64,000 nucleotides of DNA from Candidatus Eiseniibacteriota bacterium (GTDB lineage: Bacteria; Eisenbacteria; RBG-16-71-46), in contig JANMQY010000016.1 of NCBI GenBank assembly GCA_031370785.1, positions 32,001 to 96,000 of the forward strand, written 5' to 3'. Positions 6,854 to 44,314 of this stretch are shown in pieces. The position numbers and the translations under genes were made by a program. The notes below the pieces were generated by a model. The model was given only the letters and a program-made list of their open reading frames with translations, was not told the origin of the DNA and did no database searches. The first letter of the stretch is position 1, and each line of letters opens with the position of its first letter.

Positions 6854-6859
6854 GCGGTC

Positions 6860-11400: not shown

Positions 11401-11443
11401 TCACGTCCCCCGGCACGCCCAGTCTTGTGAAGGGAATGGGGGG

Positions 11444-11472
11444 ACGCTATCAAGCGGGGAACAGGGCGTCAA
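11444..11472 (-). promoter_or_regulatory. sigma70-type promoter for the lipoprotein operon
   Basis: Minus strand TTGACG-17 nt-TAGCGT, about 45 nt upstream of the 11400 start. Confidence 0.65.
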
Positions 11473-11569
11473 GCGGCAAAACCGGGCAAACGCTGGATTT
11501 CGACCGGACCCGAAGGCTCGAGAGCCGCACGGTGAACTCGACGATGACCGCCTGGCCTGGATTCCGCAC

Positions 11570-11605
11570 AAAAGACGGCGGACGGGGCTTGCGCCCCGCC
11601 CGCCG
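11570..11605 (-). terminator. Rho-independent terminator of the giant secreted protein gene
   Basis: Minus strand CGGCGGGCGGGGC-GCAA-GCCCCGTCCGCCG followed by TCTTTT, 20 nt after the stop at 11626. Confidence 0.8.
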
Positions 11606-11625
11606 CTTGAAACCGCAGACCGTCT

Positions 11626-14600: not shown

Positions 14601-15918
14601 CGATGGTGACCGCGCCGGCGCCGATGTTGTAAGCGACGTCATCCAGCCGCGCCGCACCACGGCCCTTCGAAGTAAACGCCGTGCCCTGATCGTCGAAGCC
14701 ACGGTTGGTGTGCACACGGAACACCACACGCAGCCTGTTGCCCGACGACTTGAGTGCGTTCACGTCCGCGTTGCTGATGACGATGCTGGGAGAGCCGGCC
14801 GAGCTGTCCGTGCTGCTGAACAGCCACAGCCGCTTGTCCTTGTTCACGACCTCGTTGAACCAGCGACGGAGGTCGTCGTAGATCGCACGGGTCGTACCAT
14901 CCGAGCCCTTCCAGGTGCCTTCCACCGGCTCGCCCACGTACACCTGGAACGAGTCGACCGGAGCCAGGGCGTTTGCCGCGAATGCCGGCGGTCCCGCCTC
15001 GGCGCTGATGAAGTTGCCCGCGGCCGTGGTGAGAGGATCGCCATCGAACCAGCCGGTCCGGGTGGCGGGCGCCACACCCTTGCCCGTCGACATCTGAGTC
15101 GCATAGTTGAAGCTCAGCGTCAGATTGTTGGCGCCGATGCCTGAGACGTCGATGTCACGGTAGAGAATCTGATCCATCTGCGAGGCGTAGCCCGGGAAGC
15201 GATCCCCGGCGCCGTTGCCGATGGTCGAGGTGTTGGTCTGATTGCTGGTCATCTGAAGCGCGCCGACGTTGAAGGCGTTGCCCGTGAGGGGGTCCGACAC
15301 CGTCAAATCGCCGGCATTGCGAAGACCCATCCACGCCGACCTGGTGCCGGTGATCGGGGTCCAGCCCACGCCGAGTCCGGCGCCGGCTCCGGTGTTACCC
15401 GGATCGCTGTGCCACACACCCACTACGCCGAACGTGCGGTTGCCGACCAGATTCGACGTGTAGTCGTGGCTCCGCGCTTCGTTGATCACGTAGTTGGCGG
15501 TGTTGCCCATTTCGATCGCCCACCAGGGACGATTGACGTCGACGCGCACGGCACCAGAAGCGTTGCCGTGAACCATGCGAATCGACCACCAGCCCTGCAT
15601 GGAGTCCCCGTTCACCGGGTTCTCCCAGGTCCAGAGTCCGTTCTCGTTGGAGTTCGGACGATTCGGACCTTTTCCGACCTTCCAGTAATTCGTGGCGCCC
15701 GGCAGATTGGAGTAGCCGACCCACACCGTATCGTTCGGACTCGGGGTGGACGAGACTCCCATCTTGGCGGCACGCGAGCGCAACTGGGTGGACATCTGTG
15801 CGTTGTTCAGCATCGGCTGAACGCCGTCACCGAGTCCATTGTCCTGCGCGATCGCGAGACTCGCCGTGAGCGCAGCAGCCCCTGCCATCAGGAGCAGCGC
15901 GACGTACGACTTTCTCAT
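11626..15918 (-). CDS. Giant (about 1430 aa) secreted protein with C-terminal FlgD-Ig domain, function unknown
   Basis: GGAGG RBS before MRKSYVALLLMAGAAALTASLAIA (signal peptide); C-terminus NNP...VEIKVYDVAGRQVR...WDGVNDHGAQVARGVYF. Confidence 0.88.
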   Translation of the reverse strand: MRKSYVALLLMAGAAALTASLAIAQDNGLGDGVQPMLNNAQMSTQLRSRAAKMGVSSTPSPNDTVWVGYSNLPGATNYWKVGKGPNRPNSNENGLWTWENPVNGDSMQGWWSIRMVHGNASGAVRVDVNRPWWAIEMGNTANYVINEARSHDYTSNLVGNRTFGVVGVWHSDPGNTGAGAGLGVGWTPITGTRSAWMGLRNAGDLTVSDPLTGNAFNVGALQMTSNQTNTSTIGNGAGDRFPGYASQMDQILYRDIDVSGIGANNLTLSFNYATQMSTGKGVAPATRTGWFDGDPLTTAAGNFISAEAGPPAFAANALAPVDSFQVYVGEPVEGTWKGSDGTTRAIYDDLRRWFNEVVNKDKRLWLFSSTDSSAGSPSIVISNADVNALKSSGNRLRVVFRVHTNRGFDDQGTAFTSKGRGAARLDDVAYNIGAGAVTIGDFESAASDIDNSSSFTAEQRWKSTGKPPAIYFHAHNLASLTFEDLCGDVNSTFRICDLKGTVVSAGNHDFFERAGDPINNANHSPNEAGSWGMISPTVNLKALSKTKNAWDLTGEEATATADYYIWYAIYAGIFDIFASGNAWQSGMQNYPSTQPAGGPAPGTKEWGAIRTPGFIFFNPDKQCFYVLDAAKQYGLIKTSNPTAIPDSMRIMLRKIQTCYRFGVTAGCSPTDGCYFDNSALVIIDGNPQAISVDIWHWFQDTFPANETAGLPGTANFDTTAALIRTGLNTTQTPGASGLRFDVPGDSVSVISPGDSLRIDMVFRIRPGVGNYVTVGDPSTGLRRIPTSTTPVTVGDGSFWGAYEAIPGEKSSSGAIAQHAAAPSGWSSIVWNSARCDTQETNYFPVLGKGFIPQDVGGTAWQSTLHELDPHYTSLGLSKFRCFIVDPVNASLTDPNVVCNGTPPSWVTSNPAAVGYDGNASTIEYTSILPDGIFTPGTHVQYFFRRQDLKGVATVFDMVPDTNTVTPQELESSTDAHRWQEFSVLPDRWKSACMLYVDWNDRRGDERIWVSVADSIGATSAAHRGGHNGWRAPGNVDNHTGSTGDAINNPAYRVHGKNLSAGTLFDMYGVKASESLNTGSGSLGSRFAVRNPAAANKVHNKYALNAPTTEMLQAYYKVVFALFGDLNSGLLGPVTDKTADDVKAFEDYMLGATTANPVGVWVGGNGFAQSNFDWDFYQEDLNTLFFGMDLNFPGYRAASLNSAQAADLIPTSALVGAAHASDIYGVRNSCTYTQDVLLLNQLGIPEVVTGAEYQNVGTNGPYVAVSVKPISAARPWVAIAEGFDIATVTSRYDITSYGRLAYYYNALSNVFAGISGCPVVGNALVTLDVPGLRDGSQFVNFMNLRNNPLTTGMASVHFGLAKSDRVEIKVYDVAGRQVRNLVERQFPAGEHTITWDGVNDHGAQVARGVYFTQVKYVNSRFVDAKKLIVLK

Positions 15919-16261
15919 CTGACTACCTCCATCGTCGCAATGCATGGGCAATGCGAAGTCTTCCAAATTACAGATTGCGAGCGAGGTGTCGCGGAAAACA
16001 GTTCGGCCGCCGGACTCTCAAGTGAAACGAGTGGAATCCGTCGGACGATAGCTGCTCGAAGAGCCCATCCCCCCTTTCCGCTGCCGCGCGCCGGTCTTTA
16101 GGCAGTTCAGACCGAACACGGCACTATTGAATGCGCGAACTCGTTGTCGAGCTGAAGAGCACACGTCGACCGCTGCCAGCCATCGGGTGCCCAACAACCG
16201 CGGAACTTGAGGTGCATCTGGGGGTTCATACAGGACGCACCACTACCCCAGCACGAGAAGA

Positions 16262-30247: not shown

Positions 30248-31696
30248 CTACTTCTTGCCCGTCGCCGTGCCGGCGTCGAGCGTGCTCCAGTCCGACCTGC
30301 CGTAGGCGTTGCCATTCTGGAAGTGATAGGCCTGATTCTTCGACCAGTAGAACCAGGTCTCGACCTTGTTCTGGTCGACCTCCCACGGAATGATCGCGTC
30401 GGGCGGACCGTTCGCCGCCAGGGCCTTCGCCGCCGCGCTTCCGGCCGGCGCTGCCCTGGCACGGGTCGCGGGATCGTCGACCGGCTTTCCGTTCTGAAGC
30501 GCGAGGAACACCATCAGCTCTTCGGTCGACTTCGGGTTGTTGCCGATCTTGGTGTAGACCGCGCCGAGCTGGCGGTGGAGCGTCTTGTTCTTCGGACTCT
30601 TGAGGACGCCGTCGTGCAGCACCCGCAGCGCCTCGTCGAACTTCTTCAGCTCGGATAGCGAGGCGCCGAGCGCCGAGATCGCATCGACGTCTTCCGGACG
30701 CAGCCTGAGCGTGGCGCGCCACTGGGCTTCGGCCTGGTCCCATGCGCCGGCGTTCTGGTAGGCCAGCGCCGCGTTGAACGGCAGGTCGGCATCGTTGGGC
30801 TTGAGCGCGGCGGCCTTGGCGTATTCGTCAGCCGCCGCCTTGTATTCCGCCTTTGCGGCGTCGCCCTTGGCCTCGGTGGCGCGCTTGAAGTAGGCGTCGG
30901 CGAGACCGAGATGCAGATCGGAATTCTTCGGATCGAGCTTCACCAGCTCCTGGTAGTACTCGATCGCCTCGTTGTACTTCTTTTCGGCGAGCAGCTGGTT
31001 CGCACGGTTCGCGCGCACCGACTTGATCGACTCGAGCAGCGAGCTGTCGTTGGGCGCGACTTCGAGCCCGGCGCGGAACACCTTGTCGGCGGTGGCGAAG
31101 TCGCACGTGAACGCGTACACCGACCCCAGCGTGCGCAGGGTCTGGGGATTCCCGGGCTTGAGCAGCGATGCGCGGGTCAGGCTGACGAGCGCCTCTTCGT
31201 ACTTCTTGCCGGCTTCCTTCCTCAGCGTCTCGTCGCTCTCGCTCTCGGGTTTCTTGCAGTATTCGAGATAGACCTGCTGCGCCTGGCCGATCTTGGCGAT
31301 GCCGTCGTTGAAGGCATTCGCCCAGTAGGACTCGCGGTTGTTGTTGACCCAGTCGGCCTTCTTCAAGTCGCCCTTGGTGCGCAGGCCCGCGATCGCGGTC
31401 GCGAACGCCTTGCCCGCCGGACCCGCGCTGTCGAGCTCCGCATAGGCCCAGCCCAGGTAGCCGATCGCTTCGAAGTCGTTGGGATCTTCGGAGGAGCACT
31501 GCTCGAGCTGCTGGACGGCCTTGTTCATCTCGCGCCGATAGTCCTCCATGTTGCCCCGGTCCTTGTCCTTCGTGCCCTGGACGACGTACTGGATGCCTCC
31601 GGCGCAGTGCGGATTGCGCGCGTAGGCGACGCCGCCGAGCGCGAGCACGCCGAACGCACCGGCCAGCAGTCCAAGCGCGATGCTGCGAAGAGTCAC
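30248..31696 (-). CDS. Exported tetratricopeptide-repeat protein
   Basis: Signal peptide; multiple TPR-like helix pairs ending in P-x-N/D; small C-terminal alpha/beta domain. Confidence 0.85.
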   Translation of the reverse strand: MTLRSIALGLLAGAFGVLALGGVAYARNPHCAGGIQYVVQGTKDKDRGNMEDYRREMNKAVQQLEQCSSEDPNDFEAIGYLGWAYAELDSAGPAGKAFATAIAGLRTKGDLKKADWVNNNRESYWANAFNDGIAKIGQAQQVYLEYCKKPESESDETLRKEAGKKYEEALVSLTRASLLKPGNPQTLRTLGSVYAFTCDFATADKVFRAGLEVAPNDSSLLESIKSVRANRANQLLAEKKYNEAIEYYQELVKLDPKNSDLHLGLADAYFKRATEAKGDAAKAEYKAAADEYAKAAALKPNDADLPFNAALAYQNAGAWDQAEAQWRATLRLRPEDVDAISALGASLSELKKFDEALRVLHDGVLKSPKNKTLHRQLGAVYTKIGNNPKSTEELMVFLALQNGKPVDDPATRARAAPAGSAAAKALAANGPPDAIIPWEVDQNKVETWFYWSKNQAYHFQNGNAYGRSDWSTLDAGTATGKK

Positions 31697-31710: not shown

Positions 31711-32451
31711 TCAGGTGAGGCGGTTGCCGTTGACCGACAGGCCGAACGACGTTCCGAGGAACTTGGCCGCCTTGCGCGACGCCAGCATGCGCGTCATGAA
31801 GATCTCGAAGTACTCCATGACCTGCGAAATCGCGGGGTCGATCGTGAGCTCGAGGGTGATGGTCTTGGCGCCCTCGTCCACGTTGAGAAAGCTCTTCTGG
31901 ACCGCGTAGTTCACGCGATCGTGGATGTCGAACTTGATCATGTCCGGGTTGCGCACCCGAGTGCGGTGCACGTCGCTCTTGTCGGCGAGAATGACCGCGG
32001 CGGCGACCGGGCTGACCGGATCGCCGACGTTCTCGTGGTGGTTCCCGATCGCGCCCATCACGCGCACGATCTCGGCGTCGCTCATGCTCATGTCGCTGAG
32101 GATCTGCATCGCGATCACCGCGCCGGTCTGGGCGTGCTGCTCGCGATTCACGGAGTTGCCGATGTCGTGCAGCAGGCCGGCGATCTCGGCCAGCTCGCAG
32201 TCGCGCTGCGGATAGCCGAGGCGCTTGAGGATGTTGAACGCGATGTGCGAGACCAGCCCCACATGGCGCTCGCCGTGCTCGGTGTAGCCGATCTCGGCGA
32301 GCGAGGCGTCGGCCTGGCGGATGAAGGTCCGCACCCGCGGATGGTCGCGCACCATGTCGGGCGTCACCCCGGCGGGCCCGAGGTTGCGGTCGAGCGCATC
32401 TCCGGCGACCGCGTCGGTCGGACTGTGCGAGACGTTGGAAGGTCTGGGCAT
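31711..32451 (-). CDS. HD-domain phosphohydrolase
   Basis: GYTEHGERH, LLHDIGN, NHHE, LADKSD, DIHDRVN. Confidence 0.88.
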   Translation of the reverse strand: MPRPSNVSHSPTDAVAGDALDRNLGPAGVTPDMVRDHPRVRTFIRQADASLAEIGYTEHGERHVGLVSHIAFNILKRLGYPQRDCELAEIAGLLHDIGNSVNREQHAQTGAVIAMQILSDMSMSDAEIVRVMGAIGNHHENVGDPVSPVAAAVILADKSDVHRTRVRNPDMIKFDIHDRVNYAVQKSFLNVDEGAKTITLELTIDPAISQVMEYFEIFMTRMLASRKAAKFLGTSFGLSVNGNRLT

Positions 32452-32681: not shown

Positions 32682-34679
32682 TTACAGCACCTCGACCGGA
32701 TCCACGTCCACCGCGACGCGAACCTTTGTCCTGCCCGCTTCCTCGCCGGCTTCGAGTCCGAGTCGGGCCGCCTCGCGCACCCTGGCGGCGTGCGCGCCCT
32801 TGAGCAGCAGATGCCAGCGATAGCGCCCGCGCAGCCTCGCCAGCGCCTGCGGGGCGGGGCCGAGCACCTCGACCCCGAGCGTCTCGGCCGGAGCGCTCAG
32901 CGCCTCGGCGGTGTGGGTCGCGACCCGTTCCACGTCCGCTTCGCTCGCGCCCGTGAAGAGCAGGGCTGCGAGCCGCGTGTAGGGCGGATAGCGCGCCTCC
33001 CTGCGCTCGGCCAGCTCGCGATCCAGAAACGTGCGCGCGCCGTGCATGAGCGCGGCCGCGATCGCCGGATGGTCGGGAGTACAGGTCTGCACGAACACCT
33101 CGCCCGGGGTGCGCCCGCGACCCGCACGACCGGCAACCTGCACCAGCAGCTGGAACGTGCGCTCGGCCGCGCGGAAGTCGGGAAGGTGCAGCGCCACGTC
33201 GGCGTCCAGCACTCCGACCAGCGTGACCTTCGGGAAATCGAGCCCCTTGGCGATCATCTGGGTGCCGAGCAGCACGTCGGCCTCGCCGCGCGCGAACGCC
33301 TCCAGCACCTGCGCGGGGCGCGCCCGATCGCGGGCGACGTCGGTATCGAGGCGCAGCACGCGCGCCCTGGGAAACACCGTTGCCAGCTCGCGCTCGACCC
33401 GCTGCGTGCCCGCGCCCGAGAAGCGCAGCAGCGCCGCTCCGCATTTCGGGCACTCGACCGGAGCGCTCTCGCGGTGATCGCAATAGTGGCAGCGCCACTC
33501 GCGCGGCGGCAGGTGCAGGGTGAGCGTGATGTCGCACTGCGGGCACCGGGGCACGAAGGCGCACGCGCGGCACTGGGTGTGGTGCGAGTGCCCGCGGCGA
33601 TTGAGGTAGAGCAGCGACTGCTCGCCGCGGTCGAGCCGCTCGGCCAGGGCCGCGCGCAGCGGCTGCGACAGCATTCCTCGATCCGAGCCCTCGCGCGTCA
33701 GATCCACCGCACGCATCACCGGGAGCGTGCGACGGTCCACGCGTTCCGGCAGATGCAGCAGCCGGTACTTGCCGCGCGCCGCGTTGGCCAGCGACTCGAG
33801 GCTCGGGGTGGCCGAGCCGAGCACGACCGGGACGCCCAGCATCTGCGCGCGGCGCACCGCGACGTCGCGCCCGTGGTAGCGGAGCTGCTCGCTCTGCTTG
33901 TAGGCCGGCTCGTGCTCTTCGTCCACCACGATCAGCCCGAGCTTGGGCAGCGGTGCGAACACCGCCGAGCGCGCTCCGACCACCACATCCAGCGCGCCGC
34001 GACTGGCCAGCTCCCAGTTGCGCCGCCGCTCGCCCACCGAGAGATAGGAGTGCAGCACACCGACGCGGCCGCCGAAGCGCGCGCGAAACGCGGCGACCAC
34101 CTGCGCGCCGAGTGCGATCTCGGGCACCAGCACCAGGGTCTGCCGGCCCGCCTCGCGTGCGGCGCGCGCGCCGCGCAGGTACACCTCGGTCTTGCCGCTG
34201 GCGGTGACGCCGTGGAGCAGCAACGGCGCGAATTCTGCGCCCTGGACCGCGCGCTCGACCTCCTTCACCGCTTCGCGCTGGGCCGCGGTCAGCGTGATGC
34301 GCTCGGGGAACGCGAGGCGGACCACGACGTCTTCGAGCGCGTTGCGTCGCGCGCGGCTCGCCGCGAAGCCCTCGAGGCCGCCCGGCAGCATCGCGGCCAG
34401 CACCTCGCCGAGCGGCGCGACGTAGTACTCGGCGATCCAGCGCGCGAGCGACATCAGGTGCGCGGTGAGCGGCGGCCCGGGCAGCACCGCCGCCAGGTCG
34501 CGCACCTCGGCCAGCTCGGAGCGGGGCGCGAGCGAGATCACCACGCCGCGCACCGCGCGCCCGCGGAACGGGGCCTGCACCTGCGCACCGGGGCTCACCC
34601 GGTCGGCGAGCGCCTCGGGGATGCGATAGGTGAACGTCCGCCGGAGCGGCAGCGGCAATGCGATTTCAGCGAAAGGCAT
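32682..34679 (-). CDS. priA: Primosomal protein N'
   Basis: GVTASGKTEVY, VPEIAL, DEEHE, GSATPSLES, four CxxC pairs, GTQMIAKG, QVAGRAGR. Confidence 0.97.
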   Translation of the reverse strand: MPFAEIALPLPLRRTFTYRIPEALADRVSPGAQVQAPFRGRAVRGVVISLAPRSELAEVRDLAAVLPGPPLTAHLMSLARWIAEYYVAPLGEVLAAMLPGGLEGFAASRARRNALEDVVVRLAFPERITLTAAQREAVKEVERAVQGAEFAPLLLHGVTASGKTEVYLRGARAAREAGRQTLVLVPEIALGAQVVAAFRARFGGRVGVLHSYLSVGERRRNWELASRGALDVVVGARSAVFAPLPKLGLIVVDEEHEPAYKQSEQLRYHGRDVAVRRAQMLGVPVVLGSATPSLESLANAARGKYRLLHLPERVDRRTLPVMRAVDLTREGSDRGMLSQPLRAALAERLDRGEQSLLYLNRRGHSHHTQCRACAFVPRCPQCDITLTLHLPPREWRCHYCDHRESAPVECPKCGAALLRFSGAGTQRVERELATVFPRARVLRLDTDVARDRARPAQVLEAFARGEADVLLGTQMIAKGLDFPKVTLVGVLDADVALHLPDFRAAERTFQLLVQVAGRAGRGRTPGEVFVQTCTPDHPAIAAALMHGARTFLDRELAERREARYPPYTRLAALLFTGASEADVERVATHTAEALSAPAETLGVEVLGPAPQALARLRGRYRWHLLLKGAHAARVREAARLGLEAGEEAGRTKVRVAVDVDPVEVL

Positions 34680-34846
34680 GAAGGAACATGAAGGATTCGA
34701 TTCGAACGGGGAGAACTCGTGGGCTTAAGGATTCAGCACACACAGTGGGGCGCGCCACGCGCCACGGCAAGAAAAACCTCGCGACCCGCGGGCACACTCA
34801 CGCGGGCCGGCTTCCGATACGAACGCGGGTGCGTCCGACCGGAAGC

Positions 34847-35242
34847 CTAGGCCTGCAGGCGCTGCGGGCTGGACTGACCGAGCAGCGCGTTGATGCGCTC
34901 GACCAGCTTTCGCGGACTGAACGGCTTGGTGATGTAATCGTCCGCGCCGACTTCGAAACCGATCTTCTGATCCACGTTGCGGCCCTTGGCCGACAGCAGG
35001 ATCACCGGAATGGTTCGGGTCGCCTCGTCCGATTTCAGCATCTTGCAGGTTTCGTAGCCATCCAGCTTCGGCATCATGATATCCAGCACGATGAGATCGG
35101 GGTGTTCGCTCCGCGCCTTCTCGAGAGCCTGTTCGCCGTCGAGCGCGGTCAACACCTCGTAGCCCTCCATGCCCAGACTGAAATCCAGGATGTGGACGAT
35201 GTAGATCTCGTCATCCACGACCAGGATCTTTCCCTTGGCCAT
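34847..35242 (-). CDS. Single-domain response regulator
   Basis: ILVVDDE, LDIMMPKLDG, LSAK, DYITKPF; no output domain. Alternative GTG start at 35251. Confidence 0.93.
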   Translation of the reverse strand: MAKGKILVVDDEIYIVHILDFSLGMEGYEVLTALDGEQALEKARSEHPDLIVLDIMMPKLDGYETCKMLKSDEATRTIPVILLSAKGRNVDQKIGFEVGADDYITKPFSPRKLVERINALLGQSSPQRLQA

Positions 35243-35247
35243 CTCAC

Positions 35248-37944
35248 TCACCTCCCTGAGTCGTGCATCGCGCGCTCGCCGGCCGCGCCCTTGTCGGGCA
35301 TGGCTCCACGGACTGCGGATGCGTTGTGCCGCTCGCTGGCGGCCAGTGCGCTTGCGAACATCTGCACCAGTGCGGGATCGAACTGCCGACCCGACAGGCG
35401 TATCAATTCGCCGAGCGCTTCATCCCTGCTTCGGGCGGGCTTGTGTGCCCGGCCCACGACCATGCTTTCCCATGCATCCACCAGCGCGAGCACGCGCGAG
35501 CCGATCGGAATCGCCTCGCCGCTCAGCTGCCGCGGATAACCGGTCCCATCCCACCACTCGTGGTGGGCCAGGATCACGTCCTGCACCGCGCCCAGGGTCT
35601 CGAGCGGCTCGAGCAGATCCGCACCGACTTCGGGGTGGTCCAGCACGGCCTGACGTTCCACATCCGACAACCGGCCGACGCCTTCGATCACGCTCTCGCC
35701 GAGTTTGTTCATGCCCACGTCGTGAATGCTCGCCGCGAAACTCACCAGCGCGGCTTCGGCCTCGTCGAGTCCCGCTTCGCGCGCGAGAGCGCGCGCCAGA
35801 TTCACGCGATCCGGCGCGCTGCGTCGCGCGCGCTCGAGATGGCGAACCACCTGGCGCAGTGTCGCGGCCACTTCACTGGCTCCGTCGCTGGATCTGCTCG
35901 CCTGCTGCCACGCCACGGCCACGCGCGCGGCAACCTGCAGGAGCAGGTGACAGTCTTCCGCTTCGAAAGGCCTTCCACCCTCCGGGTCGGTCACGTTGAG
36001 CACGCCGAGCAGGCCCTGCGAGCCTTCCAGCGGAACCGACAGATAGGTGTCGCTGAAATACGTTTCGCGCCTGGATGCGGGCTGGTCGCCGTTCTCTCCG
36101 GCGTGCGCCACACACAGCGGGCGCCGCTCCGACGCGACGCGACCGGCGACACCGAAGCCGGGAGCGACCCGGGTGTCACGGACCACGGTCTCGTCCAGCC
36201 CGACCGCGGCCTGGATGCGCAGCGCTCCGTCCGGCTCGGGAGTGAGCAGCGAGACCACACGCGCGTTCATCACCTCGGACACCATCTCGATCGCGAGGCG
36301 CAGCAGGTCTTCGGTTGCGCTCTCGCCATGCGGAAGCGAGCGCACCACGACCGGCGGTCCATTGCGGCGCGGCAGCACCACCGTGAAACGCGAACCCAGG
36401 CCCGGCGTACTCTCCGCGCTCACGCGGCCGCCGTGCCACTCCACGATCGATTTGCAGATAGCGAGTCCCAATCCGGTTCCGCCGTAACGTCGCACCAGCG
36501 ACGAATCCACCTGATAGAAGCGTTCGAAGATCTTTTCCAGCGCCTGCTCGGGAATCCCGATGCCGGTGTCTTCCACCTGCAGCGTGACCTCGCGCGAATC
36601 CCCTCGGAGCCGGAGCAATACCGAGCCTCCCGCCGGAGTGAATTTGATCGCGTTGCTGCCCAGATGGAGCACCAGCTGGCGCAGCTGATCGCGATCCGCG
36701 TCGACGCGTGTATCGGCCAGCTCCGTGACTACCTTGAGGTTCACCTGCCCGGTAATGGCCACCGGAGCCAGCAACCGCTCACTCTCTCCGAGCAATTCAG
36801 CCATGTCGACCGCCTGGCGGACCAGCTTCACGGCCCCCGAGTCGAACCGGTTCAGATCGAGTACCGACTCGATCAACCGGGCCAGCCGCTGGTTCTCGTC
36901 CCGGATGATGGTCAGGAAGTGCTGCTGGCGGTCGCGGGGGACTTCCCGGTCCCCGGCGGCCAGCAGCGTGTCCACGCAGGCTTTGATCGCCGTGAGCGGG
37001 GTGCGCAGCTCGTGCGAAACCGTCGAAACGAAGTTGCTCTTGAGCGCATGCAGCTCCTGCATCCGCGTTCCCGCTTCCTCCAGCTCGCGGGTGTGCTGCT
37101 CGAGCTGCCGGTAGAGCCGGGCATTCTCGATCGCCACTACCGCGTGATTGCCAAAGATCTCGAGCAATTCCATGGTCTCGCTCGAGGGCACCAGCCGGTC
37201 GATCGGATCGTCCACCGAGAAGTAGGCCACCAGTTCGCCCGAGCGGTTGAACAGGGGCACCAGCAGGACATCGTCCTTGTGCCACTCCCACTCCTCGCGC
37301 GTCCCCAGGTCGGGCGTGTAGCCGGTCGGCAGGGTGCGATTGAACGAGTGGCTGTGACTGATGAAGTAGGAGCGTCCGACCTTGAAGTCCTCGCGCAGCC
37401 AGGACAGGAACTCTTCGAGCTTCACGTCCTGGGATTGGAGCAGCACGCGCGCCGCTGGCGTGATTCCGCTGAACGCGCACGCATGCAGGCGCGAGGTGCC
37501 GGGCTCGCGCAGGCGGATCAGCACCACGCCGAAGCCGAGCGTGGTCGTGATCGTCTCGCACAGCCCCTGCAGCAGGTCGTCGAGATCGAGATGCGAGTTG
37601 ATCTGGCAGATGTTCTCGAGGATCTGGTGCAGCTTGCCGGCGCGCTTGCGATTCTCTTCGACCTGGCTGAAGTAGAGCTTGCTCAGCCGCTGGCGCGTCG
37701 TGGACAGCTCCTCGACCTGGGCGCGCAGCCCTTCGAGCTCGCCCGGCGCGGCGGCAGTGCCCTCGCTCGCGGCCTGGGCTTGCCCATTGGTTCCGGGGAC
37801 GTCCGAATCACTCCGCCTGGGACGCACCGGATCGGCGGCCTCCCGCTTCATCCGGGAGTTGTCACGCCGGGTGCGGTCCAGCTCGGAGCGCAGCCGGACT
37901 TCGGCATCGGACGGCGGCGCGATCCCGGCCTTGCGCTTCTTCAT
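35248..37944 (-). CDS. Coiled coil-GAF-histidine kinase-GAF-HD-GYP fusion protein
   Basis: SHELRTPL, SNAIKF, EDTGIG, GTGLGL; second GAF (GVAGRVA...GVLNVT); HDVG, HHEWWDGTGYP, QFDP. Confidence 0.88.
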   Translation of the reverse strand: MKKRKAGIAPPSDAEVRLRSELDRTRRDNSRMKREAADPVRPRRSDSDVPGTNGQAQAASEGTAAAPGELEGLRAQVEELSTTRQRLSKLYFSQVEENRKRAGKLHQILENICQINSHLDLDDLLQGLCETITTTLGFGVVLIRLREPGTSRLHACAFSGITPAARVLLQSQDVKLEEFLSWLREDFKVGRSYFISHSHSFNRTLPTGYTPDLGTREEWEWHKDDVLLVPLFNRSGELVAYFSVDDPIDRLVPSSETMELLEIFGNHAVVAIENARLYRQLEQHTRELEEAGTRMQELHALKSNFVSTVSHELRTPLTAIKACVDTLLAAGDREVPRDRQQHFLTIIRDENQRLARLIESVLDLNRFDSGAVKLVRQAVDMAELLGESERLLAPVAITGQVNLKVVTELADTRVDADRDQLRQLVLHLGSNAIKFTPAGGSVLLRLRGDSREVTLQVEDTGIGIPEQALEKIFERFYQVDSSLVRRYGGTGLGLAICKSIVEWHGGRVSAESTPGLGSRFTVVLPRRNGPPVVVRSLPHGESATEDLLRLAIEMVSEVMNARVVSLLTPEPDGALRIQAAVGLDETVVRDTRVAPGFGVAGRVASERRPLCVAHAGENGDQPASRRETYFSDTYLSVPLEGSQGLLGVLNVTDPEGGRPFEAEDCHLLLQVAARVAVAWQQASRSSDGASEVAATLRQVVRHLERARRSAPDRVNLARALAREAGLDEAEAALVSFAASIHDVGMNKLGESVIEGVGRLSDVERQAVLDHPEVGADLLEPLETLGAVQDVILAHHEWWDGTGYPRQLSGEAIPIGSRVLALVDAWESMVVGRAHKPARSRDEALGELIRLSGRQFDPALVQMFASALAASERHNASAVRGAMPDKGAAGERAMHDSGR

Positions 37945-40256
37945 GACTGCGCGCCCTTCTCTTCGCGCTCGAGAACGCGCACCAGCGCCTCGACCACCTG
38001 CGGATCGAACTGCGAGCCGCACTCGCGGCGCAGCTCCGTAATCGCCTGCTCCTGTGAGCGCGGCGAGCGGTAGGCGCGTTCGTGGGTCATGCTCTCGTAC
38101 GCGTCGACCACAGCCAGCACGCGCCCGCCGAGCGGAATGGCTTCGCCGCGCAGGCCGCGCGGATAACCGGTGCCGTCCCAGCGCTCGTGATGGGTCAGGA
38201 TCAGCTCGCGAACCTGCCCGAGATAATCGAGCGGCCGGATGATCTCGACACTGGTCTCGGGATGGCTCGCCAGCGCCTGGATCTGCTCGAATCCGAGCGC
38301 GCCCGGGCCGCCGACACGGTCGTGCAGCCGGGTCATGCCCAGGTCGTGAATGCTCGCGACGTAGCCGATGAGATCGGCCTCGGCCTCGGGAAGTCCGAGC
38401 TCGCGGGACACCGCGCGCGCGAGATGCACCAGGTCGTGCCCGCCCAGCTGGAACTCGCGCTTGAGCCTGGTGACGCTCTGCACCGCCTCGACCGCCTCGG
38501 TCACGATGCGCGGCGACTCAGGGTGTGCGACCGCCCGTTCGACCGCACTCGCCACGCGATCGATCAAAGCCGAGAGCACCGAGAGGTCGTCTTCGTCGAA
38601 CGGCTCCCCGGAGATCTTGTTGTTCACGTTGAACACACCGAGCACTTCACCCTGCACGCGCAGAGGCGAACACAGCAGCGACTTGGTCTTGTACTGCGGG
38701 TGATTCAGCCGGCGGAAGCGCCGATCGGTTTCGATGTTGTTGACCAGCAGCGGCCGGCCCCAGGCGGCGACCGAGCCAGCAACGCCCGAGCGCACCGAGG
38801 TGCGCCGGCCGAGCAGATTCTGGCCTTCCAGTCCCCGCGAGGTCGCAATGAACAGATCTCCGTGATCTGGATCCACCAGCATCAGCGACACGATGTCGGC
38901 GTCCATCGAGGCGGCCAGCATCTCGACCGTGTGATCGAACAGGTCGCGCAGGTCTCCGCGGATCCAGACCTGCCGGGCGATGCGGCGCGCGCGCGGGCTG
39001 GCCAGCTGACGCACCGGCATTGAGAAGCAGAAACGCGTGCCGTGCGGCTGGAGCGGCTGGACCCAGATGCGTCCGCCGTGCAGTTCGACGATGCCACGTG
39101 CGATCGCAAGCCCCAGTCCGGTGCCTTCGATCTCCTTCTCGCTGACGTTGCGCGCGCGGAAGAAACGCTCGAACACGTGCGGGACGTCGTCGGGCGGGAT
39201 TCCGGGGCCCTCATCCTCCACGAAGCCGGACCACTCCTCGCCGCGCTCGCTGGCCTGAATGCGAATCTTCCCGCCGGCAGGCGAGAACTTGATCGCGTTC
39301 CCCACCAGATTGATGAGCAGGCGGCGCAGCAGGTCGGGATCGGCCTCGGGGCTCAGGGTGGACTCGATCTCGAGATCGAACTTCACCTCACGCGCCCGGC
39401 TCTGGGTCAGGAGTCCGTCGAGGATCTCGCGCACCATGCCGTCCAGCCCCAGCCGCGCCAGACGCAACGGTCGCTGACCCGCCTCGAGCCGCGAGAGGTC
39501 GAGGATGTCGGTGACCAGCCGGGTGAGCCGGTCGCACTCGTCGTTGATGATGCCGAGGAAACGTTCGCGCGGCGCGTGCGGGTTGGTGAGGTTGTCGAGC
39601 ATCGCCTCGGTGTATGCCTTGATCGCGGTGAGCGGGCTCTTGATCTCGTGCGCGACCACCGACATCAGGCTCGACGAGGCTTCCTCGCCTTCATTCATGC
39701 GCTGCTCGAGCGTGTCGCTGCGCTGGCGCTCCTCCTGCAGAGTCCGCTTGAGCGCATCCCGCTCCAGGGTGAGCGCCATCGCGTCGGCAAGCGTCTGGGC
39801 TACGGTCCGGTCGGCGGCGGTGAACAGTCGAGGCGCGGTGAAGGCGAGCAACAGCACGCCCTGGGCGTGTCCGCCGGAGAGCAGCGGCAGGGTCACGAGC
39901 GCCGCCGGCGGATCGAGCCACAGCCCGCTCTCGCGCGGCGCGGGCGCGGAACCGTCATCGAAGGTGGGTGCATTGTCGCGCAGCGCGCGCTCGACCGGGC
40001 CATCGGAATCCGGCAGGCACGGCGTCTCGACTCCCGACTCGTCGAGCGCGCGCAGCGCACCGGTACGGGTGTCGAGGTGGAGCAGGCGGTAGTCGCTCGC
40101 ATCGAGCGCGCGCATCGCGCACACCCCTGCGATCGCGCACGCGGTTCCCAGGTCGCCGGTGCTGCGCAGCGCGAGCAGCGCCTGCGCGAGCAGGGCGAGT
40201 CCCTCGGCCGGACCGACTTCCGAGGCCGTGAGGTTGCGCGTGCTGGCCACTGCCAT
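37941..40256 (-). CDS. GAF-histidine kinase-GAF-HD-GYP fusion protein (paralog of the downstream gene)
   Basis: AHEIKSPL, GNAIKF, EDEGPG, GTGLGL; GAF (GVAGSVA...GVFNVNNK); HDLG, HHERWDGTGYP, QFDP. Confidence 0.88.
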   Translation of the reverse strand: MAVASTRNLTASEVGPAEGLALLAQALLALRSTGDLGTACAIAGVCAMRALDASDYRLLHLDTRTGALRALDESGVETPCLPDSDGPVERALRDNAPTFDDGSAPAPRESGLWLDPPAALVTLPLLSGGHAQGVLLLAFTAPRLFTAADRTVAQTLADAMALTLERDALKRTLQEERQRSDTLEQRMNEGEEASSSLMSVVAHEIKSPLTAIKAYTEAMLDNLTNPHAPRERFLGIINDECDRLTRLVTDILDLSRLEAGQRPLRLARLGLDGMVREILDGLLTQSRAREVKFDLEIESTLSPEADPDLLRRLLINLVGNAIKFSPAGGKIRIQASERGEEWSGFVEDEGPGIPPDDVPHVFERFFRARNVSEKEIEGTGLGLAIARGIVELHGGRIWVQPLQPHGTRFCFSMPVRQLASPRARRIARQVWIRGDLRDLFDHTVEMLAASMDADIVSLMLVDPDHGDLFIATSRGLEGQNLLGRRTSVRSGVAGSVAAWGRPLLVNNIETDRRFRRLNHPQYKTKSLLCSPLRVQGEVLGVFNVNNKISGEPFDEDDLSVLSALIDRVASAVERAVAHPESPRIVTEAVEAVQSVTRLKREFQLGGHDLVHLARAVSRELGLPEAEADLIGYVASIHDLGMTRLHDRVGGPGALGFEQIQALASHPETSVEIIRPLDYLGQVRELILTHHERWDGTGYPRGLRGEAIPLGGRVLAVVDAYESMTHERAYRSPRSQEQAITELRRECGSQFDPQVVEALVRVLEREEKGAQS

Positions 40257-40278
40257 GTGCGACTCCCTTTGAAGAGCC

Positions 40279-41241
40279 TTAGGCGACGTTCTGATCCGAC
40301 TCGGCGTCGTCTTCGCTGCGGCGGTCACCGACGAGTACGCTGCCCGGAATTCCCTTGCCGTGCGCCTTGAGCTCCTGCGCGATGTCGTTGAGCTGCGCCA
40401 GGTGAGAGACCGGCATCCGGTCGGTACTGACCAGCGCGATGGTGAGACTCATCAGCGGCAGGCGCTCGACGACATGCCGGCGATTGATCACTTCGACGTA
40501 GTTGCGCTCGAAATCGGCCGGGTCGTACAGCGACGGCAGCGTGCGATTGAATTCCTCGATCACGCTGCGGCCGAGCGCCTCGGCGTGCTCCGGCGCGGTC
40601 AGCACCACGAAGTCGTCGCCACCGATGTGGCCGACGAAGTTCGCATCGCCGCCATGCTTCTGCGCCGCATCCACCAGCAGGCGCGCCACGGTCTGGATCG
40701 CCTGGTCGCCACGCGCATAGCCGTAGTGGTCGTTGAAAGCCTTGAAGTAGTCGACGTCGATCTGGAGCAGCGCGAAAGGCATGTTGCTGTCGAGTAGCCG
40801 CGTCAGCTCGTCACTGATCGAGTGATTGCCGGGCAACCCGGTCAGCGGGCTCGCCGCGCGCTGCTGCTTGCTCCATTCCAGCACGTTGCGGATGCGGAGC
40901 ATCAGCTCCTTGGATTCCCACGGCTTGGTGACGTAGTCGTTGGCGCCGTTCTCGAGACCCAGAACCTTGTCGGCGTTCTCGCTTTTGGCGGTCAGCAGGA
41001 TGATCGGGATGTGGCGGGTGGCGAACGTCGAGCGCAGCTCGCGACACACCGAGAATCCGTCGCGGCGCGGCATCATGAGATCGCACAGCACGAGATCGGG
41101 CAGCACTTCCACCGCGCGTTCCACGGCCTCCTGGCCGTCGCGCGCCTCGATGACCGCAAAGCCTGCGGCCTCGAGCTGAAAGCGCAACACCTCGCGCAGG
41201 TGAAGCTCGTCCTCGGCAACCAGAATTCGCTGCTGGTTCAC
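40279..41241 (-). CDS. Response regulator with GGDEF domain (GGDDF variant)
   Basis: ILVAEDE, CDLMMP, TKPW; PLTGLPGN, DVDYFKAFNDHYG, GHIGGDDF; GTG start after GGGAGAG. Confidence 0.9.
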   Translation of the reverse strand: MNQQRILVAEDELHLREVLRFQLEAAGFAVIEARDGQEAVERAVEVLPDLVLCDLMMPRRDGFSVCRELRSTFATRHIPIILLTAKSENADKVLGLENGANDYVTKPWESKELMLRIRNVLEWSKQQRAASPLTGLPGNHSISDELTRLLDSNMPFALLQIDVDYFKAFNDHYGYARGDQAIQTVARLLVDAAQKHGGDANFVGHIGGDDFVVLTAPEHAEALGRSVIEEFNRTLPSLYDPADFERNYVEVINRRHVVERLPLMSLTIALVSTDRMPVSHLAQLNDIAQELKAHGKGIPGSVLVGDRRSEDDAESDQNVA

Positions 41242-41307
41242 GCTGATCTCTCCCTGATGGACTGCTTCCTCTGACCCAGGCAGACACACATCGCCACTCC
41301 ACCAGGT

Positions 41308-41323
41308 CGCAATCGCTATGCCA
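41308..41323 (-). promoter_or_regulatory. sigma54 (-24/-12) promoter motif
   Basis: TGGCAT-AGCGA-TTGCG, exact consensus spacing, about 65 nt upstream of the operon start. Confidence 0.7.
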
Positions 41324-41482
41324 TGCAGGACGCCGCGAACACCGCGCCCATTCTCCGGAGCGCGTGATACGCCAGGCGCATGCAGCGACAGAGCTCGCAC
41401 CACCTGAAGCGGGCCACGACCGGCCGTGCACGCTGCACGAAGTCGGCGCGTTCCCCAGGGTGAAAGCTCGCCGTCTCCCGTG

Positions 41483-41509
41483 GTATCGGCCAGCTTCCCG
41501 TCGCCCTGA
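41483..41509 (-). promoter_or_regulatory. sigma28 (FliA/SigD)-like promoter motif
   Basis: TCAG-15 nt-GCCGATAC versus consensus TAAA-N15-GCCGATAA. Confidence 0.5.
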
Positions 41510-41698
41510 AGTGGCGTCACGAGGGGGTGTAAAGGAGGGTTCGGGCTGTTCGGGGGGCGGAGCGGCGGAAAATGACCTTGGGTTCAGGGGAGGCGGGGAT
41601 GCTCGAAGAGGGGATGGGGCGCCGGATCGCGGAGAAACCTCAGAGGAGGAGCTGCCTCATCGAAGTGAGGCGGCCGTCACTCGAGTGGCCGGGCTACC

Positions 41699-42802
41699 TC
41701 AGACCGGCACTTCTCCGACCGCCAGCGGCATGTCCACGATGAAGACACAGCCCTTGCCCGGAATGTCGCGGAACGTGATCTTCCCCCGATCCGCCTCGAT
41801 CGCCTGGCGGCTGATCGCAAGGCCGAGCCCCAGTCCCGCGCGGTCGGATCCCCGCTGTTCGAACGGCCGGAACAACGCGTCGGCTGCTCCCGGCATAAGG
41901 CCGCCGCACTCGTCTTCGACTTCGATCGAAACCCGATCGTCCGTCGAACGGATCCTGACCTTCACGTGGCCACCGATCCGGGTGAACTTGAATGCGTTCT
42001 GGAGCACGTTGGAGATCGCAGAGGCGAAAAGGTGTCGGTCGACATCCACGAGCAGCTTGTTGTCTGCGCGCTCGACACTGAACTGAAGACCGCGTTCCAT
42101 TGCGTCAGCGGAGGCGTTGATCTCCATCTCCTCGATGAACTCCGCCACGCGCAGGCGTTCTTTCTGATGCGTGCCCGAAGCGAGCCGCACCTCCGACACC
42201 GAGCGGTCGACCAGCTCGCGCAGCCCGCGCAGGCTGCGATCGAGCACCTCGAAAGTGCTGCCACTGACGCCGACTTTGCCACTCTTCACCGCCTGAAACG
42301 CGAGCATGGCGGTGTTGAGGTAATTGCGCAGCTCGTGCGCGAAGAAGCCCTGACGCCTGGTCTCCGCACCGGATGAGTCCACGTCGCGCGAGCGCGCATA
42401 CTCGGTCACCGCGCTGGCAATCGCGTTGTCGAGGCACCGATTCAGAGTGCGGAAATCATCGGTGCCGATCGGAAGTTTCAGATCCAGTGCCAGCTCGGTG
42501 ATCGCCTGGCAGATGTCGCCGTAGTCGTGCACGACCTGGGCGATGGTGTACCCCTGCCCGAGCAGGTCAGCGCCGTGCTCGCCCGCGCTCTTCCCCATGG
42601 CGGTGGCATCGGGACTAGTAGGGCTAGGGGAATCCGCGGCGGCTTCCTGCTTCAGGATCACGCCCAACTGGGTGAGGAACAGCGGCACACCGTTCGCGAG
42701 TTCGTGCGTCGTCGCGAGCGGCGCGGCTCTCGCGGCGACCTTCCCCCGCGCGCGCTTGATGATCTCGTCACGTTGCGTTGCGATGAAGCTTTCGAGGTTC
42801 AC
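41699..42802 (-). CDS. Soluble histidine kinase with N-terminal RsbRD_N-like domain
   Basis: EHG...QVVHDYGDICQAIT; AHELRN, QNAFKF, EDECGG, GLGLGL; GTG start after AAGGA. Confidence 0.87.
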   Translation of the reverse strand: MNLESFIATQRDEIIKRARGKVAARAAPLATTHELANGVPLFLTQLGVILKQEAAADSPSPTSPDATAMGKSAGEHGADLLGQGYTIAQVVHDYGDICQAITELALDLKLPIGTDDFRTLNRCLDNAIASAVTEYARSRDVDSSGAETRRQGFFAHELRNYLNTAMLAFQAVKSGKVGVSGSTFEVLDRSLRGLRELVDRSVSEVRLASGTHQKERLRVAEFIEEMEINASADAMERGLQFSVERADNKLLVDVDRHLFASAISNVLQNAFKFTRIGGHVKVRIRSTDDRVSIEVEDECGGLMPGAADALFRPFEQRGSDRAGLGLGLAISRQAIEADRGKITFRDIPGKGCVFIVDMPLAVGEVPV

Positions 42803-42944
42803 TATCCAGTCCTTTTCTGCGGTCTGATTCTGTGCCCTCACAGCATTGTACTCCGTCACTCGCGGAACCAGTACGACTCAATCCTCGGTGGGACATTCTG
42901 GCCGATCGCGCTCGATGAAGTGACTGTTTGCTGGCGAATCAATC

Positions 42945-43991
42945 TCAACTCGGGTTCATTTCCAACCCTGAATCCTCCAGCCCCGCCACCACATCCAGCT
43001 CCGGATCCATGGCATCGCCGCGCTCCAGCATCCACGCGCCGATCAGCGCCACCATCGCCGCATTGTCCGCGCACAGGCGCGGCGATGGGATGCGCAGCAC
43101 GACCCCGCGCCCGGCGCAGGCCACCTCGAGTCGCTCGCGCAGCTCCCGATTGCACGCGACTCCCCCGCCGAGATTCAGCGCGCGCGCGCCGGTCGCATCC
43201 ACTGCGCTCATGGTGCGAGTCACCAGCGTCTCGACCACCGCCGCCTGGAACGAGGCCGCGATGTCGGCAAGAAGGGCGTCCGCGTACGGCGGCTCGCCGT
43301 AGGGCGCGAGCGCCTGAGCGACCGCGGTCTTGAGTCCCGAGAACGAGAAGTCCCAGCCCGGCCGATCCAGCATGGGTCGCGGCAGCGCGAACGCTCTCGG
43401 ATTGCCCTCGCGGGCGAGTGCGTCGATCAGCGGACCTCCGGGGAAGCCGAGGCCGAGTCTCTTCGCCACCTTGTCGTAGGCCTCGCCGGCCGCGTCATCC
43501 CGGGTGCTACCCATCCAGCGATAGCTTCCGAAACCCGCGACTTCGACCAGCTCGGTGTGGCCGCCCGAGACCACCAGCGCAATCGCGGGGTAGGCGCAGG
43601 GTCCGTGTTCCAGCGTGCCCGCGTGCAGATGACCTTCGATGTGATTCACGCCGACCACGGGAATTCCGAGCGCGAGGCCATATGCCTTGGCGAACGCCAC
43701 CCCGACCACCAGCGAACCGACCAGTCCCGGCGCGCGCGTCACCGCAATCGCGGTCAGCGCCGCCGCGGGAACGTCGGCCTCTTCGAGCGCGTGAGCGACC
43801 AGCCCCGGCAGCAGCTCGAGGTGCGCGCGCGAGGCGAGCTCGGGGACCACTCCCCCGTAGAGCCGGTGCACATCCTGGGCGGCGATCAGATGTGCGCGCA
43901 GGGTGCGCCCTCCCTCGAGCACCGCAACCGAGGTGTCGTCGCACGAGGTCTCGATGCCGAGCACCATGCCTGCGTCAAGGGTCCGGCTCAC
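42945..43991 (-). CDS. tsaD: tRNA N6-threonylcarbamoyltransferase TsaD
   Basis: LGIETSCDDT, GGVVPELASRAH, HIEGH, VSGGHT, DDAAGEAYDK, SFSGLKT, DNAAM; GTGA overlap with cutA. Confidence 0.96.
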   Translation of the reverse strand: MSRTLDAGMVLGIETSCDDTSVAVLEGGRTLRAHLIAAQDVHRLYGGVVPELASRAHLELLPGLVAHALEEADVPAAALTAIAVTRAPGLVGSLVVGVAFAKAYGLALGIPVVGVNHIEGHLHAGTLEHGPCAYPAIALVVSGGHTELVEVAGFGSYRWMGSTRDDAAGEAYDKVAKRLGLGFPGGPLIDALAREGNPRAFALPRPMLDRPGWDFSFSGLKTAVAQALAPYGEPPYADALLADIAASFQAAVVETLVTRTMSAVDATGARALNLGGGVACNRELRERLEVACAGRGVVLRIPSPRLCADNAAMVALIGAWMLERGDAMDPELDVVAGLEDSGLEMNPS

Positions 43992-44314
43992 GCCTCGGGC
44001 TCCAGTACTTCCTCGAGCCACGCCATGTACTTTGGCGCGCCGGCCGCGACCCGCACCGCGACACACTCGGGAGTCTCGTAGGGATGCAGCTCGTGAAGCC
44101 GCGAGAGCAGCGCGGTCCAGTCCTGCTTACGCGTCTTCATCAGCACCACGACTTCGCGGGTGTCTTCGATTCCCTTCTTCCAGCGATAGAGCGACCTGGC
44201 GCCGCCCAGCAGGTTCGCGCATGCGATCAGCCGCTCCTCGATGAGGACGCGGGCCACGCGCGCCGCGTCTTCTTCATTGGCGAACGTGGTGAACACCATC
44301 AGGATTTCGGTCAT
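43988..44314 (-). CDS. cutA: Divalent-cation tolerance protein CutA
   Basis: LIACAN, SLYRWK, KT, LHPYETPE. Confidence 0.93.
   Translation of the reverse strand: MTEILMVFTTFANEEDAARVARVLIEERLIACANLLGGARSLYRWKKGIEDTREVVVLMKTRKQDWTALLSRLHELHPYETPECVAVRVAAGAPKYMAWLEEVLEPEA

Follow-up and report, generated by a model that had tools for sequence, protein, structure and literature searches.

A conserved operon of Candidatus Eiseniibacteriota encodes two histidine kinases fused to degenerate HD-GYP domains, putative c-di-GMP receptors

We analyzed a 64,000-nucleotide stretch of DNA from a Candidatus Eiseniibacteriota bacterium (GenBank assembly GCA_031370785.1, contig JANMQY010000016.1, positions 32,001 to 96,000 of the forward strand), hereafter the window, in which a four-gene operon (34847..41241, all genes on the minus strand) encodes two paralogous histidine kinases fused to HD-GYP domains between two receiver proteins. 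The first gene (40279..41241) encodes a receiver-cyclase protein of 320 aa (P0001), with REC at residues 6-117 and GGDEF at residues 132-217; we call it REC-GGDDF after its cyclase motif. It is followed by HK1 (P0002, 771 aa, 37941..40256), with the order GAF-HisKA-HATPase-GAF-HD-GYP, and by HK2 (P0003, 898 aa, 35248..37944), in which a coiled coil, predicted from sequence only, precedes the same series of domains. The kinase core of HK1 (39009..39674) comprises HisKA at 195-260 and HATPase at 306-416 with phospho-His H203, and that of HK2 (36364..37041) HisKA at 302-370 and HATPase at 417-527 with phospho-His H311. Comparison of residues marked both C-terminal HD-GYP domains as degenerate, at 37977..38447 in HK1 (121 sequences) and at 35350..35823 in HK2. 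The last gene (P0004, 34847..35251) encodes a single-domain receiver, the lone REC, of 131 aa from an ATG at 35242, with an alternative GTG start at 35251.

Above the Pfam cut-offs, both kinases matched GAF (two stretches), HisKA, HATPase_c and HD_5, the first gene REC and GGDEF, and the last gene REC. These matches confirmed, each in its place, the operon and all the domains of an original prediction made from the letters of this DNA, which had passed over the GGDDF motif and the loss of catalytic residues in the HD-GYP domains. It had also described ATGA and GTGA overlaps between the genes; we found them at the HK1/HK2 (ATGA) and HK2/REC (GTGA) junctions but not between REC-GGDDF and HK1, where a Shine-Dalgarno sequence precedes the HK1 ATG in a 22-nt gap. 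Solubility of all four proteins, likewise expected, agrees with their highest 19-residue hydropathy mean of 1.45, which indicates no transmembrane helix. The two kinases share 37% identity across 627 columns, and both have the H, N, G1, F and G2 boxes, as had been noted for the H, N and G boxes; their cores look active.

That the fusions might be artefacts of assembly or frameshift was ruled out by more than 100 independent full-length homologues, by an equal layout in other genomes, and by contigs of a second study that bridge the core-to-tail span of each kinase. Of the 120 best homologues listed, 119 align with 97% or more of the kinase-to-HD-GYP query, and all share one listed Pfam set. 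For the fusion as a whole we found no Pfam-named entry and no solved structure; PDB matches cover either the kinase core or the GAF-HD-GYP part, those to the HD-GYP domain being 4R8Z, 5Z7C and 4MCW. Similarly, an AlphaFold2 model of HK1 (mean pLDDT 82, pTM 0.56) was confident per domain and matched, as separate parts, the folds of kinase cores and of PmGH from Persephonella marina (4MCW). The HD motif, the HHExxDGxGYP motif and this fold match place the tails within the HD-GYP family.

In PmGH, whose numbering is used below, cyclic di-GMP (c-di-GMP) is captured with a single iron and held by Y285, R314 and K317, and activity is nearly abolished by alanine at D183, D308, K225 or any metal ligand other than E185 and D305 (PMC4159591; here and below, papers are cited for the sections consulted). 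Both window tails retain the PmGH-type ligands H221, D222, H250, H276, H277 and D305 and the nucleotide residues Y285, R314 and K/R317, and both lack Lys225, His189 and Asp183/Glu185 of an active phosphodiesterase of this type. The HK1 tail keeps HD, H665, HH, GYP, D718 and RxxR, with Met641 for K225, Glu for D308, and Gly or Ala in register with H189, D183 and E185, which are not conserved. The HK2 tail keeps HD, H770, HH, GYP, D823 and RxxK, with Met745 for K225 and no H189. Across 121 HK1 sequences, the equivalent of K225 is invariably Met and those of D222, H250, H276, H277, D305, R314 and R317 do not vary; Y285 is kept in 120 and H221 in 98, and the H189 region is variable. The catalytic Lys is found in none of 138 locus copies of the two paralogues, a count that excludes five loci that are truncated, frameshifted or not orthologous. 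In 79 distant representatives, this position holds Met (46), Leu (21), Ile (1), Val (1) or Lys (1), nine being unreadable, and Lys is kept in 1 of the 78 in which the kinase precedes HD-GYP; 81 of 86 unrelated HD-GYP domains, taken as a control, keep K225. Where the HD motif can be read (70 representatives), its His has given way to Tyr, Arg or Phe in 36.

Because the catalytic Lys and the first His are gone while one metal site and RxxR are mostly kept, the tails have probably lost hydrolysis and kept the binding surface, and would act as receptors rather than phosphodiesterases. Of the two roles proposed for them beforehand, sensing fits best; degrading does not, as K225 is missing from every copy and H189 is not conserved. 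The inactive HD-GYP domain of DvhD from Desulfovibrio vulgaris binds c-di-GMP at about 99 nM, and its stalk moves (PMC13090378); PDB 9RBZ and 9RC0 agree with the constructs in that paper, and we therefore take them to be DvhD. The full loss of HD and HH ligands seen in DvhD does not occur in the window tails; it is observed in one family of the phylum (f3) and in some single copies. Elsewhere the host genome encodes four HD-GYP domains with both H189 and K225, along with five GGDEF, two MshEN and two PilZ matches, and no EAL domain was matched in it. The HDxGM signature of the tails would define a family of HD-GYP pseudoenzymes across three phyla, whose members are often labelled phosphodiesterases or HD phosphohydrolases in databases. 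We also observed a separate kinase-GAF-GAF-HD-GYP fusion, P0181 (a PocR-domain protein at NCBI), that retains the catalytic Lys and the first His and may join a kinase to an active phosphodiesterase.

The cyclase motif of REC-GGDDF reads GGDDF instead of the canonical GG[D/E]EF in all 53 orthologues, in which D54, D162, K167, N170, D179 and K292 are invariant. With residue roles that we assume to be those of PleD, the metal Asp, the Lys, the Asn and the guanine-binding Asp, as well as the receiver Asp, Thr/Ser and Lys, are present in 53 of 53. Asp179 occupies throughout what we take, by PleD/GacA numbering, to be the guanine-specificity position, where a Hypr enzyme (cGAMP synthase) would have Ser/Thr. 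REC-GGDDF has no RxxD site and is likely a phosphorylation-activated diguanylate cyclase; among GGDDF enzymes, GSU1937 is active (PMC8835794).

The lone REC is the most conserved gene of the operon (mean identity 0.86 vs 0.49-0.57 for the other three) and, among 206 genomes of the phylum Eisenbacteria, was matched in 185. Its helix-1 surface positions are identical in 92 of 92 kinase-bearing loci. Furthermore, Phe at one helix-1 docking position was observed in only two of the 38 receivers scored in the genome, which are the two receivers of the operon, and these also share the helix-1 surface on Krumholzibacteria-type contigs. A complex prediction for REC-GGDDF and the lone REC, folded without alignments, scored 0.00, which is evidence neither way. 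The lone REC had been put forward as a phosphate sink or an output; given its conservation and spread, the role of a conserved hub or an output suits it better than that of a passive sink.

Within the same 206 genomes, the GAF-HD-GYP part matched 144 (E 1e-45) and the HK2-specific GAF 102, one of which (G039) is a weak match that belongs to a different system. On contigs that were long enough, the 57 loci first mapped have the order tsaD, REC-cyclase, HK1 and/or HK2, REC, priA, and 56 of them carry a fusion kinase, so that the layout does recur, as a proposed check of operon conservation was meant to establish; the mapping of gene order was extended to 40 further loci. Named homologues among the best listed include several Candidatus Eisenbacteria and three under other names, and the window DNA recurs in freshwater sediment and sediment sequencing runs. 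When clustered at 50% identity, 150 representative proteins were listed, 79 with a kinase core and HD-GYP and 78 with them in this order; the named fusion members among them belong to Nitrospirota and Krumholzibacteriota. Contigs assigned to Krumholzibacteriota carry the whole operon, and Nitrospirota the fusion alone. On Krumholzibacteria-type contigs, retrieved via one Krumholzibacteria-named protein, 8 of 21 mapped loci contain the REC-cyclase, then one additional small kinase, the two fusion kinases and the receiver; two others are truncated, and the remainder are unrelated HD-GYP genes. The additional kinase, of about 280 aa, lies between REC-GGDDF and the first fusion kinase (L217-L228). 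A scan of the genome collection for more distant loci was dominated by generic HD-GYP genes, and its top match (L021), the sole one inspected, proved to be two adjacent genes. In a tree of 65 sequences, HK1 (support 96) and HK2 (support 86) each pair with one Krumholzibacteria-type kinase. Therefore, the HK1/HK2 duplication is likely older than the split between Eisenbacteria and Krumholzibacteriota.

The two paralogues met different fates. Half of the 92 complete kinase-bearing loci examined carry a single paralogue (24 HK1 only, 22 HK2 only). Where both are present (n = 46), 44 copies of HK1 and 45 of HK2 have the full set of eight kinase motif residues. HK2 remains intact when alone (21/22; 66 of 68 loci overall), whereas none of the 24 lone HK1 copies does: their G boxes are altered, and the phospho-His is lost in two genera. 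In the HK1-only clade, DHp identity is 0.59 vs 0.79, and the GAF (0.77) and HD-GYP (0.67) domains remain conserved; HD, H250, HH and Y285 are retained in all 24 tails. Since lone pseudokinase copies keep a conserved tail, the HK1 tail is retained for some role other than kinase catalysis. A marker tree of 85 loci indicates two independent losses of HK2, one in a four-genus clade (support 1.0) and one in a single genus, and it divides the HK2-only loci into four or more distinct groups.

Genomes without a fusion match revealed that the receivers can persist without the kinases. In 19 of 20 such loci, REC-GGDDF lies just upstream of the receiver, with the acceptor Asp kept; 16 of these pairs are adjacent, and three are separated by an intervening stretch, in one case a decayed HK2-like gene without a tail and in one a short stub. 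At the kinase position, locus L211 (4101-5522, minus strand) carries an HK2-like remnant with neither catalytic motifs nor tail, and L204 (4260-4829, minus strand) a coiled coil-GAF-like stub. A profile search of nine kinase-less genomes found no full-length fusion and did find its positive control. Given that the receiver pair persists in 19 kinase-less loci and that the 24 HK1-only loci have no intact operon kinase, the module is not self-contained, contrary to the switch that was originally predicted, and these loci are best explained if the two-gene core of REC-GGDDF and REC also receives input from outside the operon. A candidate for this input is an orphan GAF histidine kinase (L296, 4122-5711, minus strand; G000:C108) with two predicted membrane helices, whose GAF and DHp helix are similar to those of the operon kinases. 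It was found in 143 of the 206 genomes, including all five HK2-less genera, and was not found in families f2, f5, f7-f14 and f16 in that search.

We tentatively favor the following reading. The operon would encode two soluble kinases with c-di-GMP-receptor tails. Their predicted targets for phosphorylation are REC-GGDDF and the lone REC, and REC-GGDDF would in turn exert feedback on both kinases through the c-di-GMP that it probably makes. HK2 would be the main kinase, and HK1 a second input or an antagonist whose catalytic core is maintained only while HK2 is present. The lone REC, as the conserved output, would be a target of both kinases, and REC-GGDDF probably another; once phosphorylated, REC-GGDDF would make c-di-GMP. 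Bound to the GAF-HD-GYP tail, c-di-GMP would shift the balance of kinase and phosphatase through the dimer stalk, as the stalk shifts in DvhD, and its breakdown would be left to the intact HD-GYP enzymes elsewhere in the genome. Several observations weigh against this scheme. The tails retain more metal ligands than DvhD, which has neither HD nor HH, and Lysobacter RpfG, which lacks the first His, is reported to be active; residual hydrolysis is thus possible, and the effects of PmGH mutations may not carry over to this family. In f3, the metal ligands are gone from both tails and RxxR also from the HK2 tails, so nucleotide binding is not universal. The GGDDF protein PA3258 was reported not to raise c-di-GMP (PMC8835794). 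On the receivers, the helix-1 surface of REC-GGDDF, including the docking position noted above, varies among orthologues, and that of the lone REC is largely kept where both kinases are gone; since it is kept there, its conservation is not explained by the fused kinases and points to a further conserved partner. Finally, the decay of HK1 amounts to two independent events, which is thin evidence.

Were the tails slow but working phosphodiesterases, removing the c-di-GMP supplied by REC-GGDDF, the operon would form a make-and-break circuit. Most orthologues, like the two window proteins, retain HD, H250, HH, D305 and GYP, the first His is perhaps dispensable in RpfG, and no EAL domain was matched in the genome. 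This circuit is nonetheless rather improbable given the absence of K225 throughout, the lack of conservation at D183, E185 and H189, the replacement of the HD His in about half of the readable representatives, the f3 tails without metal ligands, and the four intact HD-GYP domains available elsewhere in the genome. The opposite view, that the tails bind no nucleotide and are dimerization or docking modules, for example tethering the cyclase or another partner to the kinase, accords with the report that inactive HD-GYP proteins often regulate through protein contacts (Galperin and Chou), with the persistence of f3 tails despite their eroded nucleotide residues, and with the retention of the pseudokinase versions. 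We consider it unlikely, as the equivalents of the PmGH nucleotide contacts R314, R/K317 and Y285 are nearly invariant in the 121 HK1 sequences and are kept in 22-24 of the 24 pseudokinase copies.

Two further alternatives concern the kinases rather than their tails. HK1 and HK2 could form a heterodimer in which HK1 modulates or cross-phosphorylates HK2, as the original prediction had suggested in part; the translational coupling of the two genes, the age of the duplication and the state of the HK1 core, which is intact in 44 of 46 loci where HK2 accompanies it and in none of the 24 where HK2 is absent, would all fit. An obligate heterodimer does not agree with the 46 single-paralogue loci, because 21 of the 22 HK2 copies without HK1 are intact and HK1 was lost at least four separate times, and takeover by an outside kinase explains the decay of HK1 as well as a heterodimer does; we therefore doubt that such a pairing is the key to the system. 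Alternatively, the receivers might owe most of their input to kinases encoded elsewhere, for instance the orphan membrane GAF kinase, with the fused kinases in an accessory role. The 19 loci with both receivers, acceptor Asp intact, and no fused kinase speak for this, as do the nine genomes in which the profile search found no full-length fusion and the occurrence of the orphan kinase, with its similar DHp helix, in 143 of 206 genomes and every HK2-less genus. However, the orphan kinase was not found in the families listed above, and the position of the fused kinases, flanked by the two receiver genes, is older than the split of two phyla, so that a merely accessory role for these kinases has only a small chance of being right.

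The favored arrangement, kinases with receptor tails under feedback from REC-GGDDF, combines features of several known systems. Its tails resemble PmGH in the series GAF-stalk-HD-GYP and in HD, H250, HH, GYP, D305 and RxxK/R; unlike PmGH, they sit behind a complete kinase core, lack K225, H189, D183 and E185, and have Glu for D308. With DvhD they share a proposed receptor role and an HD-GYP domain that follows a sensor domain and a helical stalk and from which catalytic residues are missing. DvhD, however, sits in the membrane, has no metal ligands and controls a protease of the periplasm, whereas the operon tails keep one metal site and their predicted output is the kinase on the same chain. 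Tuning of kinase activity by c-di-GMP is known from SgmT, CckA, ShkA and RavS, which use GGDEF, CA or pseudo-REC domains (PMC9600515), the receptor of SgmT being a C-terminal GGDEF; the sections of PMC9600515 consulted list no kinase with an HD-GYP receptor. If the reading is right, an HD-GYP route would be added to the GGDEF (SgmT), CA (CckA/RavS) and pseudo-REC (ShkA) routes of c-di-GMP control of histidine kinases. The cyclase has the REC-cyclase layout of WspR-type REC-GGDEF proteins and shares the GGDDF motif with GSU1937, but differs in having no RxxD and in the Asp at the guanine-specificity position, of c-di-GMP type instead of the Hypr Ser.

A literature search, mostly of titles and abstract openings, returned no paper on a kinase-GAF-HD-GYP fusion and nothing on these phyla, in keeping with the earlier statement that no characterized HD-GYP protein was known to carry a complete kinase core. 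The text of the HD-GYP census of Galperin and Chou mentions neither HisKA nor HATPase, although its tables 1 and 3 and supplements may list such a protein, and the consulted sections of PMC9927289 and PMC5932348 contain no kinase-HD-GYP fusion. The fusion is ancient, real and apparently unstudied; all of its parts are known domains, and its novelty lies in the wiring, not the chemistry. The predicted solubility of all four proteins would allow the circuit to be rebuilt in vitro, its hosts being known here from metagenome assemblies only, and the natural variants (both kinases, HK2 only, pseudokinase only, neither) offer comparisons for the evolution of kinase pairs and pseudokinases.

A sigma28 (FliA/WhiG)-type promoter-like site (41483..41511, minus strand; CTTCAG-N15-GCCGATAC) precedes the first gene by about 250 nt. 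It has a -10 of GCCGATA type with a -35 element 15 nt upstream, which we take to be the sigma28 consensus, and the genome encodes one FliA/WhiG protein over the cut-off. The -10-like motif was observed upstream of 51 of 114 orthologous operons on the coding strand, compared with 4 for the reverse strand and none within the gene (n = 114 each), and we infer that the site acts as a sigma28 promoter. Genome-wide, 28 sigma28-like sites were found vs 8, 8, 1 and 99 in four scrambles, one of which exceeds the real count. Behind 20 of these sites, where the downstream genes are mixed and do not outline a pilus regulon, no pilin was matched in the 133 frames scanned out of 178, and no flagellin was matched in the genome. 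We found no sigma70 promoters or intrinsic terminators in 34600-43100 and no Rfam RNAs, riboswitches included, at gathering score in the window. Two RNA-labelled runs yielded contigs that span the operon, but at lengths of 53-59 kb these are no proof of transcription.

A second sigma28-like match (36710-36738, minus strand) lies inside the HK2 coding sequence and may be due to chance. Elsewhere in the genome, sigma28-like sites precede csrA and another open reading frame (L323, G000:C102 19950-23257); the latter has no Pfam match and presumably resembles the GTPase MglA. The FliA/WhiG sigma gene itself stands in a cluster (L308, G000:C102 27500-32400) with a MinD/FlhG-like gene, a small protein, a GAF-GGDEF and a REC-GAF-kinase, in this genome without a flagellin match, and the GGDEF and kinase pair of that cluster recurs in several families of the phylum (L297-L304).

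DivK and PleD share an operon (bioRxiv 10.1101/148429), and the DivJ/PleC-DivK/PleD system is like the present one in having two related kinases, a single-domain receiver and a receiver-cyclase, with the receivers encoded together. Unlike in that system, the operon kinases are soluble, are encoded inside the operon and carry HD-GYP tails, and the cyclase has one REC and a GGDDF motif. The pseudokinase derivatives of HK1 are reminiscent of DivL. Matches to the NCBIfam models of DivJ (126 bits vs a cut-off of 1000) and PleD (142 vs 474) do not indicate orthology, and the operon could be said to work like DivJ/PleC-DivK/PleD by analogy only. It is conceivable, though a long way from probable, that a non-flagellated, deep-branching lineage has its own polarity or cell-cycle switch of this kind, with a one-metal pseudo-HD-GYP sensor in the kinases, antagonistic ancient paralogues acting on an ultra-conserved receiver, sigma28 control, and twice, upon loss of the twin, a DivL-like pseudokinase receptor.

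In the window, the conserved neighbors of the operon are priA downstream (32682..34679, minus strand), after a gap of 167 nt, and tsaD upstream (42945..44066, minus strand). Between tsaD and the operon lies an orphan histidine kinase of 386 aa (41699-42859, minus strand) that was not seen in the other 56 mapped loci, a genome of the same genus included, and that is present on contigs of a related strain; it is likely a recent insertion. Downstream of priA, a small classical HD-domain gene (31711-32451) and a TPR gene (30248-31696), both on the minus strand, are found in most relatives, followed there by genes that we take to be ilvC-like and HU-like. Farther along the minus strand, the stretch 5768-15966, with a lower G+C of 0.62-0.65, contains three large open reading frames without a Pfam match and a gene for a 1446-aa protein with a C-terminal FlgD-like domain.

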